32,000 bases of DNA, from NCBI RefSeq assembly GCF_003945235.1, contig NZ_RSDW01000001.1, positions 4,470,001 through 4,502,000 on the forward strand, read 5' to 3'. Made by a program: the position numbers and the translations under genes. Below, one piece after another: positions 9,997 to 11,535 of this stretch (positions are counted from its first letter, which is position 1; each line of letters begins with the position of its first letter). The DNA is from Edaphobacter aggregans (GTDB lineage: Bacteria; Acidobacteriota; Terriglobia; Terriglobales; Acidobacteriaceae). Under the pieces are notes generated by a model that saw only the letters and a program-made list of their open reading frames with translations, ran no database searches and had not been told where the DNA came from.

Positions 9997-11535
9997 ATGA
10001 AGCCAATTGCAATATCAGCCGTCTCGTGGGGCGCCAATCGCCTCGATATCTTTGGGCTTGGCACCAACAACTCGATGTTCCACAAAGCCTGGGCCAATGC
10101 CTGGTACCCGTCGGCCTCCGGCTGGGAGGCAATCGGCGGTGTCTTCAATAGTGCCCCGGCAGCGGTCTGCTGGGGGCCCAACCGCATCGACCTGTTCGGC
10201 CTTGGCACCGACAACCAGATGTATCACAAGGCTTGGAACGTGAACGCCTGGTCACCCTCTCAGACGGGGTGGACAGCGTTTGGCGGTGTCTTCAACAGCC
10301 GGCCCGCAGTGGTCTCCTGGGGTCCTAACCGCATCGACCTCTTTGGCCTCGGCACCGATAACCAGATGTACCACAAGTATTGGAATGGCAGTGCGTGGGG
10401 ACCTTCCATCACCGGTTGGGAGGCGCTTGGCGGCGTCTTCAATACTCCCCCTACAGTAGTTTCGTGGGGTCCTAATCGTCTGGATATCTTCGGGCTCGGC
10501 ACCGACAACCAGATGTACCACAAGGCCTGGAATGGAAGTTCCTGGTATCCCTCTGTAACGGGATGGGAGGCGCTCGGCGGCGTCTTCGATAGTCCTGCAG
10601 CGGCGGTCTGCTGGGGACCCAATCGCATCGACCTCTTCGGGCTCGGCACCGACAACCAGATGTATCACAAGGCCTGGAATGTCAATATTTGGTCTCCTCC
10701 GGGGACGGGTTGGACGCCGTTTGGCGGCACCTTTGATAGTCCCCCTGCGGTGGTCGCGTGGGGTCCCAATCGCCTGGACCTCTTTGGGCTCGGCACCGAT
10801 GATCAGATGTACCACAAGGCCTGGAATGGCAGCGCGTGGCTTCCTTCGATCACCGGATGGGAGGCGCTCGGCGGTGTCTTCCATAGCGCACCCGCGGTGG
10901 TCTCCTGGGGAGCTAATCGTCTGGACCTCTTCGGCCTTGGCACCGACAACCAGATGTACCACAAGGCTTGGAATGGCAGCGCGTGGCTTCCTTCGCCCAC
11001 GGCTTGGGAGGCGCTGGGCGGCATCTTCGATCTCGCTCCTGTGGGAGATTCACGCAACCTGAGCCTCAGTGAGCAGTTTCAGGTGGAGTCGGAGTGGTGC
11101 TGGTCGGCGACGACGTGCAGCATTACCAAGTACTACGATCCCGCGTCGCCCTGGACGCAATGCACTCTTGTCAACAAGGCTTACAACCAGACTACCTGTT
11201 GTGCCAATGGCAGCAGTTCAGCGTGCAACCAACCCTGGTATCCGGATCAGGCGCTCACGATCACCGGGCATCTCAGCTCGACGACAGGCAGAGCTGAATC
11301 GCTTGCCGAGGTAATGCGGGAGATCAATGCATCACATCCGATCTCGATAGCGATCTATTGGTACGGTGGTGGAGGCCACAACCCGGCGATCGATGGGTAC
11401 GATGTCACCAGTCCCTCCTACCCCACCATCGATATCCAGGATCCCATCTACGGACACTCAACGCAGGACTTTGGCACCTTCCCGCACTCCTACAACGGCG
11501 GGGCCAATTGGGGAAATAGCTATCTCACCCACTAG
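9997..11535 (+). CDS. Fusion protein: seven-bladed W-rich beta-propeller (PLL/DUF346/tectonin-like lectin repeats) plus a C-terminal papain-fold cysteine peptidase domain
   Basis: The ATG at 9997 follows AGGAG (9985-9989). There are seven tandem repeats of about 49 aa with the pattern WG.NR.D.FGLGTDNQMYHKAWNGS.W.PS.TGWEALGGVF.S.P. The C-terminal roughly 160 aa carry Q..ESEWCWSA (Cys368, codon 11098-11100) and GGGHNPAIDGYD (His461, codon 11377-11379), like clan-CA C39/C70-type peptidases. No signal peptide is evident. Confidence 0.75.
   Translation: MKPIAISAVSWGANRLDIFGLGTNNSMFHKAWANAWYPSASGWEAIGGVFNSAPAAVCWGPNRIDLFGLGTDNQMYHKAWNVNAWSPSQTGWTAFGGVFNSRPAVVSWGPNRIDLFGLGTDNQMYHKYWNGSAWGPSITGWEALGGVFNTPPTVVSWGPNRLDIFGLGTDNQMYHKAWNGSSWYPSVTGWEALGGVFDSPAAAVCWGPNRIDLFGLGTDNQMYHKAWNVNIWSPPGTGWTPFGGTFDSPPAVVAWGPNRLDLFGLGTDDQMYHKAWNGSAWLPSITGWEALGGVFHSAPAVVSWGANRLDLFGLGTDNQMYHKAWNGSAWLPSPTAWEALGGIFDLAPVGDSRNLSLSEQFQVESEWCWSATTCSITKYYDPASPWTQCTLVNKAYNQTTCCANGSSSACNQPWYPDQALTITGHLSSTTGRAESLAEVMREINASHPISIAIYWYGGGGHNPAIDGYDVTSPSYPTIDIQDPIYGHSTQDFGTFPHSYNGGANWGNSYLTH
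10012..11043 (+). repeat. Intragenic tandem repeat array, 7 units of 147 bp (first unit 144 bp), encoding the propeller blades
   Basis: The conserved Trp codon of WG.NR recurs at 10027, 10171, 10318, 10465, 10612, 10759 and 10906. Long near-identical DNA stretches recur, such as GGCACCGACAACCAGATGTAYCACAAGGCYTGGAA. Confidence 0.9.

Follow-up and report, generated by a model that had tools for sequence, protein, structure and literature searches.

In the staphopain system (MEROPS family C47), the gene of a papain-like protease is followed by the gene of a dedicated partner, staphostatin, which is its specific inhibitor. Families C47, C70, C39 and BtrH_N fall in one subcluster of the papain fold (PMC10318531). 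MOA is a fungal defence toxin made of a lectin and a papain-like protease (PMC4764322); albusin B is a bacteriocin composed of a B-lectin and a peptidase, and most LlpA and S-type bacteriocins have no Sec signal (PMC6240691). The lectins PLL2 and PLL3 occur extracellularly without a signal peptide (PMC12203525). The locus analysed here, in Edaphobacter aggregans (Acidobacteriota; RefSeq assembly GCF_003945235.1, contig NZ_RSDW01000001.1, forward-strand positions 4,470,001 to 4,502,000; this whole stretch of 32,000 nucleotides is referred to as the window), is a two-gene module: a gene for a lectin-peptidase, in which a propeller of seven PLL-type blades precedes a predicted papain-fold domain of the C70 type, and directly after it the gene of a smaller partner protein. 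Coordinates of both genes and of their features are collected in the table.

The lectin-peptidase gene had previously been described from its letters only (the sequence-only reading), and had been taken for a stand-alone gene. The partner gene was missed in that description, and it changes what the unit is: a module of two genes rather than a single gene. The partner ATG lies 18 nt past the stop of the lectin-peptidase gene and has a strong Shine-Dalgarno sequence of its own. An exhaustive search places 2,415 clusters in the C70-like family (E <= 1e-3), and a scan of one genome per species finds at least 517 loci, distributed over Acidobacteriota, Actinomycetota, Proteobacteria, Bacteroidota, Planctomycetota and Armatimonadota, and over archaea that include Methanosarcinaceae, Methanomassiliicoccaceae, Methanoregula and Bathyarchaeota. 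(Pairing was counted on the best 80 of these loci, 78 of which are informative.) The partner is directly downstream of the C70 domain in 71/78 and fused to it in 5/78, that is, it adjoins or is fused in 76/78. The reverse test, starting from the partner in metagenomes, finds a C70 domain directly upstream in 73/73 informative loci, with no orphans. Natural C70-partner fusions are found in several phyla, and divergence in one protein tracks divergence in the other (r 0.87 over 6,903 locus pairs), the partner evolving only slightly faster. Clustering of the neighbours over the 80 loci revealed no third conserved gene, only shadow open reading frames and the synteny of close relatives; in the three contexts that were inspected, the cassette sits at unrelated genomic sites. 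The two-way pairing across bacteria and archaea shows that the two proteins work together. This bears directly on the proposal of the sequence-only reading that the protein is a stand-alone, disulfide-bonded, exported and glycan-directed cysteine protease of unusual architecture. Its domain calls and catalytic residues are correct, and for PLL lectins the lack of a signal peptide does not preclude an extracellular occurrence, but an enzyme whose partner is present in 97-100% of loci does not stand alone, its architecture recurs, and the argument from its cysteines is weakened by their conservation in anaerobes and by the variability of Cys374 (both taken up below), so that we consider this proposal very improbable.

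Split loci retain a bias of reading frame. Peptidase and partner genes share a frame in 64/110 of them, one third being expected (binomial p 8e-8, uncorrected for kinship), and in 27/51 when one locus is taken per species; the stop codon between the two genes is TAG in 56/110 (the corresponding junction of the window is at 11533-11553). This bias could be a trace of fusion or fission, or could leave room for read-through to a fused product.

The C-terminal domain of roughly 160 residues, with the Cys368 and His461 contexts that were singled out from the sequence, is present as described, and its assignment to a clan-CA (C39/C70-like) peptidase is upheld by profile and by fold. Pfam Peptidase_C70 (PF12385) matches residues 353-490 with 30.2 bits against a cutoff of 19 (33.8 bits when the domain is searched alone) and is carried by all close homologs. 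C39_2 matches more weakly (E 1.3e-4), and Pfam C47 (PF05543) does not match the lectin-peptidase at E <= 1. Residues 341-512 and the partner were modelled separately with AlphaFold2 (AF2). For the peptidase domain (predicted local distance difference test score, pLDDT, 88.6; predicted template modelling score, pTM, 0.86), the best Foldseek matches are the staphopains 1cv8 and 8oig, with a template modelling score (TM) of 0.74 and E 3e-7 to 8e-7. Lower in the list come AvrPphB and AvrRpt2, the C39 protease LahT150, and two toxin-immunity structures, one of CdiA-CT/CdiI and one with a papain-like toxin. The Foldseek matches, staphopains included, are all clan-CA peptidases, in agreement with the published C47/C70/C39/BtrH_N subcluster (PMC10318531). 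The model thus places the domain in the C70/C47/C39 subcluster of the clan-CA papain fold. Within that subcluster it is a distinct subfamily, with an insert that bears a four-Cys cluster (Cys4), and only remotely related to AvrRpt2; a family profile of the C70-like domain finds no match among PDB sequences at E <= 10.

Conservation of individual residues was counted over 177 diverse relatives (see the table). The putative catalytic residues (Gln362, Cys368, His461 and Asp482) are each conserved in at least 98%, and the conservation of Cys368 and His461, whose absence the sequence-only reading had named among the grounds for refutation, is borne out. Cys368 (context Q...WCW) lies at the N-terminus of helix 28-40 of the domain model, and the context of His461 is GGGGH...DGYD. 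The spacing of Gln362 and Cys368 is that of papain Gln19 and Cys25, and Asp482, 21 residues past His461, stands about as far from it as the Asn of staphopain does from its His. A few relatives depart from this pattern: P0199, P0226, P0236 and P0287 have Ala in place of the catalytic Cys, and P0285 has Asn for the triad Asp. All five are possible pseudo-enzymes in which the rest of the fold is preserved.

The lectin-peptidase has eight Cys, six of them in the peptidase domain (368, 374, 389, 401, 402 and 410) and two in the blades (58 and 205). The six that the sequence-only reading had counted are therefore there; its further step, from six Cys to disulfides and from disulfides to an extracellular life, is weak, because the four extra Cys persist in strictly anaerobic archaea (methanogens and Bathyarchaeota keep the spacing C-x11-CC-x7-C). 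Cys374 is not conserved among relatives. On sequence grounds, metal binding by these four Cys (a Cys4 site) is no less plausible than disulfides; the cluster falls in the part of the domain model with the lowest confidence (pLDDT 77-78).

The partner has no match in Pfam, NCBIfam, PADLOC or PHROGs. Its AF2 model is of high confidence (pLDDT 91.7, pTM 0.88), and the best Foldseek match of that model in the PDB has an E of 0.09, with nothing significant in BFVD; a profile of the partner family finds no match among PDB sequences at E <= 10. As modelled, the partner would be a protein whose fold has no recognisable relative. It is homologous to the C-terminal ~200 residues of longer C70-family proteins (P0221, E 6e-18; P0241, E 4e-17), a homology that reads, in sequence terms, as a Rosetta-stone fusion. 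Many of its charged residues are invariant (D51, E86, E129, R131, R134, D153 and R187). The label 'acyl-CoA synthetase (AMP-forming)' that several partner homologs bear in records of the Joint Genome Institute (JGI) finds no support here.

The C-terminal tail of the partner falls into classes. A (V/L/I)P-COOH tail is found in 85/136 partners, that of the window (VP) included, and GG-like tails in other clades and in fusions, where the last residues are ELGG, ELGS or xGA. The class of the tail co-varies with the residues that follow the catalytic His of the protease: proteases with GGGH-NP have partners with xP tails, and those with GGGH-F-hydrophobic have partners whose tails are GG-like or basic. 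This co-variation suggests that the partner tail lies in the active-site cleft, although the signal is confounded by phylogeny. A flexible, conserved tail that is GG-like in many clades also recalls the tails of carriers and modifiers, and could be read differently: the Cys-His enzyme would then not be a protease but would transfer acyl groups, like the BtrH-like acyltransferases or the phytochelatin-synthase-like transpeptidases, with the partner as acyl or peptidyl donor or acceptor. C70, C39, C47, BtrH_N and C83 do cluster together, non-protease enzymes included (PMC10318531). The best Pfam and fold matches of the domain, on the other hand, are all true peptidases, genes for an E1-like or ATP-dependent activating enzyme do not accompany the pair, and a free C-terminal carboxylate needs activation to form an acyl-enzyme (established chemistry); acyl transfer is accordingly given very little weight.

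The N-terminal part of the lectin-peptidase is a propeller whose seven tandem blades of 49 residues, starting at residue 6, were already evident to the sequence-only reading. Its blades are anchored on NR[LI]D[LI]FG and have a mean pairwise identity of 65% in protein and 69% in DNA, and Tandem Repeats Finder reports a 147-nt period (6.9 copies, score 799). Pfam DUF346 matches seven stretches (E 1.9e-43), and against PDB sequences (phmmer) the propeller finds PLL2 (6rfz, E 1.3e-65), 5c9o (2.5e-43), the lectin PHL (5mxe, 1.3e-42) and 6t96 (1e-33), so that the earlier call of a PLL-type lectin propeller is sustained by the Pfam search and by homology to the solved lectins PLL, PLL2, PLL3 and PHL, of which PLL, PLL2 and PHL are lectins of Photorhabdus. 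Scores with NCBIfam lectin models are below cutoff (68 vs 200 and 73 vs 350). Trp stands at the (S/C/A)WG, HK(A/Y)W and GW/AW positions in 7/7 blades. PLL/PHL lectins bind L-fucose or O-methylated glycans, at inter-blade sugar sites that are built on CH-pi stacking with Trp (PMC6943638 for the sites). By its sequence, the propeller belongs to the PLL/PHL lectin family (Pfam DUF346/PF03984 and PF26607), and glycan binding is predicted. Tandem Repeats Finder also gives periods of 294 and 441 nt over 10021-11031 (78% matches for 441 nt), which suggests that the propeller has grown, or has been homogenised, in multi-blade units.

Everything that had been described in the lectin-peptidase open reading frame, blades as well as peptidase, is found there, and its lack of a Sec or Tat signal is real. 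Since an in-frame stop lies three codons 5' of the ATG, the start cannot move upstream and a signal peptide is not possible; the N-terminus MKPIAISAVSWGANRLDIFG (MKPIAISAVSWG...) enters blade 1 directly, with no hydrophobic signal region. Orthologs are found in Terriglobus saanensis SP1PR4 (513 residues, 86% identity) and in L006, a syntenic contig of a metagenome-assembled genome that carries both the lectin-peptidase (512 residues, 93% identity) and the partner. At the DNA level, a soil-type metagenome contig of the JGI (Ga0070734_10000611) is 98% identical to the window, whose closest named relatives are Terriglobus and Terracidiphilus. An exact-sequence look-up in the protein collection found neither the 512-residue protein of the window nor the 513-residue protein of T. 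saanensis, and a precomputed Pfam record is lacking for both; the 197-residue neighbours of both are present in that collection (WP_013568290.1, 'hypothetical protein').

A search with the full-length lectin-peptidase yields 3,549 significant matches, of which the best 120 cover the propeller only (~66% of the query). Among these 120 are fusions to peptidases of the S53, S1, M43, S8, M28, M12, M10, C25 and M64 types (types assigned from Pfam accessions and, in part, from source names), and in 109 of them the propeller is C-terminal. Propeller-C70 proteins of the PLL type also occur in Actinomycetota, Alphaproteobacteria and archaea, many of them in metagenome-assembled genomes. The sequence-only reading had called the architecture unusual; PLL propellers are joined to about ten peptidase families among the best matches, and the PLL-C70 fusion itself recurs, in T. 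saanensis, in L006 and in further metagenome-assembled genomes. It is the C70 domain that stays constant and the module in front of it that is exchanged: PLL propellers, three B_lectin domains, ricin-B, DUF5648, a propeller of seven 'HVNY...HELWWD' repeats, and fn3 with a PQQ-like propeller all occupy this position (ricin-B in P0129 and P0137, B_lectin in P0173 and in 8 of the best 80 loci). Signal peptides are almost never present across the C70-like family.

Some details of these N-terminal regions deserve record. Most fusions of peptidases (M43, S8, S53, S1 and others) to PLL propellers also have no Sec-like signal: a crude heuristic applied to the best 120 propeller homologs (P0001-P0120) finds none in 93 and a signal-peptide-like segment in 7. 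In many of them the N-terminus is basic and of low complexity and precedes an 'MPGG/MPSG'-like motif at about residue 15-25; the starts may be mis-called, or the fusions may have a non-classical signal in common. C70 proteins of a short form, without a lectin (P0145-P0297; L025, L031, L046, L057, L063 and L081), share leaders of roughly the type 'M..LL(D/E).TR(I/V)PL' or 'M.LPS.L', in some cases followed by a Trp/Arg-rich hydrophobic segment; the leader might serve in targeting, as a propeptide or as a membrane anchor. At L003:6428-7982, a C70 gene of 165 residues is overlapped by a preceding gene of 357 residues that encodes seven 'QGTQHVNY...HELWWD' repeats and runs out of frame at its C-terminal end. 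The two genes probably represent a propeller-C70 fusion (of which P0138 and P0139 are intact examples) that has been frameshifted by sequencing error or by a recent split.

A constant C70 domain, N-terminal modules that swap and a cognate gene next door together make up the layout of modular bacteriocins and chimerolectins. The reading that we favour, tentatively and at somewhat less than an even chance, is that the pair constitutes a lectin-targeted protease toxin which is held inactive in its producer by the partner. The first gene of the two-gene operon would encode a chimerolectin, with multivalent glycan binding provided by the propeller and proteolysis by the staphopain/C70-like domain (Gln362-Cys368-His461-Asp482). 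The partner would bind the protease domain stoichiometrically and keep it inactive inside the producer, probably by way of its conserved C-terminal tail, placed in the active-site cleft as a mimic of product or pseudo-substrate. Having no export signal, the complex would reach its target after cell lysis, upon ingestion by a grazer or by some other route (a mode of release modelled on the PLL lectins, the LlpA-type bacteriocins and fungal toxins of the MOA type), and the lectin, whatever its sugar specificity may be, would concentrate the protease on competitors or predators that expose glycans at their surface. Deposited complexes with a dedicated inhibitor or immunity protein exist for several of the closest fold matches of the protease domain (staphopain-staphostatin, 1y4h and 1pxv; CdiA-CT/CdiI, 8ssm; toxin/immunity, 9l5u). 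The two-way pairing, the lack of a third conserved gene, the co-divergence, the co-variation of the tail and the precedents for action without a signal peptide speak for this reading as well.

A number of observations weigh against this favoured reading. About a quarter to a third of the C70-like family has only a short leader and no lectin module. C70-partner fusions would be unusual for a toxin-immunity pair, though compatible with a zymogen-like arrangement; the partner is never arrayed or orphaned (no orphans in 73 loci), and it is not hypervariable but constrained. Among the neighbours of the 80 loci, nothing for secretion or lysis is linked to the pair. The Cys4 cluster in strictly anaerobic archaea fits a cytoplasmic metalloprotein as well as it fits an exported protein, and the fold of the partner, compared with the PDB by Foldseek, is unlike that of the staphostatins or of any known inhibitor.

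Several of these same features would suit a module that stays inside the cell, in which the protease cleaves or releases its partner (an effector or a pro-toxin) when the N-terminal module senses a ligand, as in protease-activated systems of abortive infection and defence. The absence of signal peptides is systematic across the family, variable N-terminal modules are set on a constant protease, strict pairing together with natural fusions is what cleavage in cis would call for, the Cys4 motif is found in anaerobic archaea, and the cassette is mobile, occupying unrelated sites. What tells against such a module is, in part, the partner itself, which ends exactly at its conserved tail and so has nothing C-terminal to be cleaved off, and in part the N-terminal modules, which are classical extracellular glycan-binding folds. 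Links to defence are also wanting: PADLOC-DB v2 returns no family at E <= 1 for the lectin-peptidase, the partner or two natural fusions, none of the three inspected contexts is a defence island, and no phage association appears in BFVD or in PHROGs, the latter having no match to either the lectin-peptidase or the partner. Regulated proteolysis inside the cell is regarded as unlikely, though it is the alternative to which we give most weight.

Obligate pairing, co-divergence and fusion are also typical of two subunits of one enzyme, and the partner, with its many invariant charged residues, might be an accessory subunit (a folding chaperone, an activator or an export adaptor) of a protease that is not a toxin but acts on glycoconjugates or envelope proteins of the producer itself. 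Homology of the partner to a known chaperone or adaptor family is lacking, however, the patchy distribution and the different genomic sites are unlike those of a housekeeping function, and the swapping of lectin modules suggests that recognition of the target is being diversified; we rate this alternative as rather improbable.

Around the module, a scan for promoters and terminators gave results at the locus that were no better than those from shuffled sequence, and the window contains no Rfam matches and no tRNAs. The block 6707-12305 comprises a gene of 110 codons, a radical SAM gene (minus strand), a gene for a secreted phospholipase D (PLD)-like protein, the lectin-peptidase gene and the partner gene, and lies directly upstream of rplA-rplJ-rplL-rpoB-rpoC. 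In L006 (L006:1078-8731), the corresponding block parts rplK from rplA by ~7 kb. Homologues of secE, nusG and rplK are not found anywhere in the window, in which a Vut_1 transporter, an RND efflux pair and an FAA hydrolase are encoded upstream; the normally tight rplK-rplA linkage is broken at this locus. The PLD-type neighbour (8309-9721, plus strand, 470 residues) has a signal-peptide-like N-terminus, a choice-of-anchor D/ASH Ig-like domain and two PLDc_2 domains; it matches DISARM DrmC-like and NucT-like models below curated cutoffs, and is syntenic in L006. It was considered as a member of the module and rejected, having a signal peptide and choice-of-anchor D and being absent beside the pair in T. 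saanensis. Past rpoC, three open reading frames have no Pfam match (24240-24665, plus strand, 141 residues; 25869-26603, minus strand, 244 residues; 26844-27533, minus strand, 229 residues). The GC content at 24-27 kb is 0.52-0.56, compared with ~0.59 elsewhere in the window, which hints at foreign DNA.

Table. Features of the lectin-peptidase/partner module (positions within the window)
Feature	Position	Strand	Basis or remark
Shine-Dalgarno AGGAG of lectin-peptidase gene	9986..9990	+	6 nt before ATG at 9997, read from sequence
Lectin-peptidase gene, 512 residues	9997..11535	+	Open reading frame; start fixed by in-frame stop three codons upstream
Seven-bladed PLL/DUF346-type beta-propeller, residues 6-347, 7 x 49 residues	10012..11037	+	Pfam, PDB matches, blade alignment, Tandem Repeats Finder
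Papain-fold cysteine peptidase domain, C70/C47-like, residues 353-512 (predicted)	11053..11532	+	Pfam PF12385, AF2 model, Foldseek
Gln362, putative oxyanion-hole residue, 6 before catalytic Cys	11080..11082	+	Conserved 168/168
Cys368, putative catalytic nucleophile in WCW	11098..11100	+	Conserved 164/168, Ala in four
Four-Cys cluster C389, C401, C402, C410 (C-x11-CC-x7-C)	11161..11226	+	Conserved 166/170, 171/173, 170/173, 173/176
His461, putative catalytic base in GGGGH	11377..11379	+	Conserved 173/174
Asp482, putative third triad residue in QDP	11440..11442	+	Conserved 172/173
Shine-Dalgarno GAGGGAGGA of partner gene	11541..11549	+	4 nt before ATG at 11554, read from sequence
Partner gene, 197 residues, unannotated family	11554..12147	+	No domain match; adjoins or is fused to C70 domain
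Partner C-terminal Val-Pro, clade-specific tail motif	12139..12144	+	P197 nearly invariant in alignment

Both halves of the lectin-peptidase have known superfamilies, the PLL lectins for the propeller and the clan-CA C70/C47/C39 subcluster for the protease, and the principle of a lectin joined to a protease is known in fungi, as lectin bacteriocins are in bacteria. The open-access literature that was searched yielded precedents for each half, and no description of an obligate pairing with a protein of unrecognised fold across bacteria and archaea. A broader proposal, possible but doubtful, is that the C70-like protease and its new-fold partner form an undescribed two-component system (517 loci or more, spread over seven or more bacterial phyla and several lineages of archaea) in which the tail gates the active site, and that the lectin-fused forms are prokaryotic counterparts of the fungal chimerolectin toxins, without signal, stored in the cytoplasm, and aimed through glycans at competitors or grazers. 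Were this true, bacteria and archaea of soil and sediment would possess a large and unstudied family of cysteine proteases targeted through glycans, with a built-in regulator whose fold has no solved relative, and so a new pair of protease and inhibitor or of protease and partner. The principle of the mushroom toxin MOA would extend to prokaryotes, and a tractable case would be at hand for the exit of lectins and bacteriocins that have no signal, since T. saanensis SP1PR4, a named strain, has been sequenced. Should the toxin reading fail, the almost invariable pairing would still make a family of unknown function directly testable.

Like the PLL/PHL lectins, to which it is clearly homologous in sequence (E 1e-65 to 1e-29), the propeller of the window has seven blades with the W motif, and PLL2 and PLL3, which have no signal peptide either, are reported to be extracellular (PMC12203525). 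The window protein differs in lacking their N-terminal tail of ~30 residues, in carrying a C-terminal protease and in falling below the NCBIfam lectin cutoffs. With AvrRpt2 and Peptidase_C70 the protease domain shares PF12385, above its gathering cutoff, and the papain fold with a conserved Cys-His-Asp; yet AvrRpt2 itself (6hqz) is 30th in the Foldseek list (E 5e-3, TM 0.44), the family profile finds no PDB sequence, the domain here has in addition a Cys4 motif, lectin fusions and an obligate partner, and its context is not that of a type III or type VI effector. The C39 double-glycine leader peptidases (LahT150, 6mpz) are sisters by Pfam C39_2 and by fold (E 1e-3), and many partners end in a GG-like tail. 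Fusion to an ABC transporter is not seen here, the partner of the window ends in VP, and where a GG-like motif is present it is at the extreme C-terminus of a folded protein of 190 residues and not in an N-terminal leader.

Staphopain remains the best fold match of the protease domain, and both systems have a dedicated partner gene just behind that of the protease. The window protein is unlike staphopain in having no Pfam C47 match, no signal peptide or propeptide, and Asp rather than Asn in the triad; the partner is unlike staphostatin in its length and in having no fold match to it. The papain-like interbacterial toxins (CdiA-CT/CdiI, 8ssm; 9l5u; Cpe1, PMC12136450) likewise have a C-terminal papain fold followed by a cognate gene, and the peptidase domain is similar to them in fold (Foldseek E 3e-4 to 5e-3), but the window protein has no delivery domain of the contact-dependent inhibition, type VI secretion, Rhs or PAAR kind and no Pfam Tox-PL match. 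More generally, the module shares with polymorphic toxins an enzymatic domain at the C-terminus, N-terminal modules that vary and a cognate gene as its next neighbour downstream; delivery or translocation domains of Pfam were not found in proteins of the C70-like family.

The lectin-like and modular bacteriocins (LlpA, albusin B and the S-type pyocins) resemble the module in their lectin targeting modules, in the frequent absence of Sec signals and in the presence of a downstream gene, which in modular bacteriocins is an immunity gene (PMC6240691). Albusin B, with its lectin and peptidase, has a parallel in the B_lectin-C70 relatives. LlpAs differ in having no enzymatic domain and no immunity gene; the partner here is, unlike an immunity protein, never orphaned, sometimes fused and not hypervariable. 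The comparison with MOA and PSL1a is one of architecture only. Their lectin is a beta-trefoil and not a propeller (though ricin-B-C70 relatives exist), their protease belongs to a permuted, Ca-dependent and dimeric papain subfamily, no partner gene is known for MOA, and they are not homologous to the window protein, in which the MOA domains PF18021 and PF18022 and ricin-B have no Pfam match at E <= 1; nor is MOA among the Foldseek matches listed for the peptidase domain. What the window protein does have in common with them is an N-terminal lectin and a C-terminal papain-like protease in one chain, as in MOA without a signal peptide, an arrangement for which a role in defence has been proposed (PMC4764322, PMC4717121).

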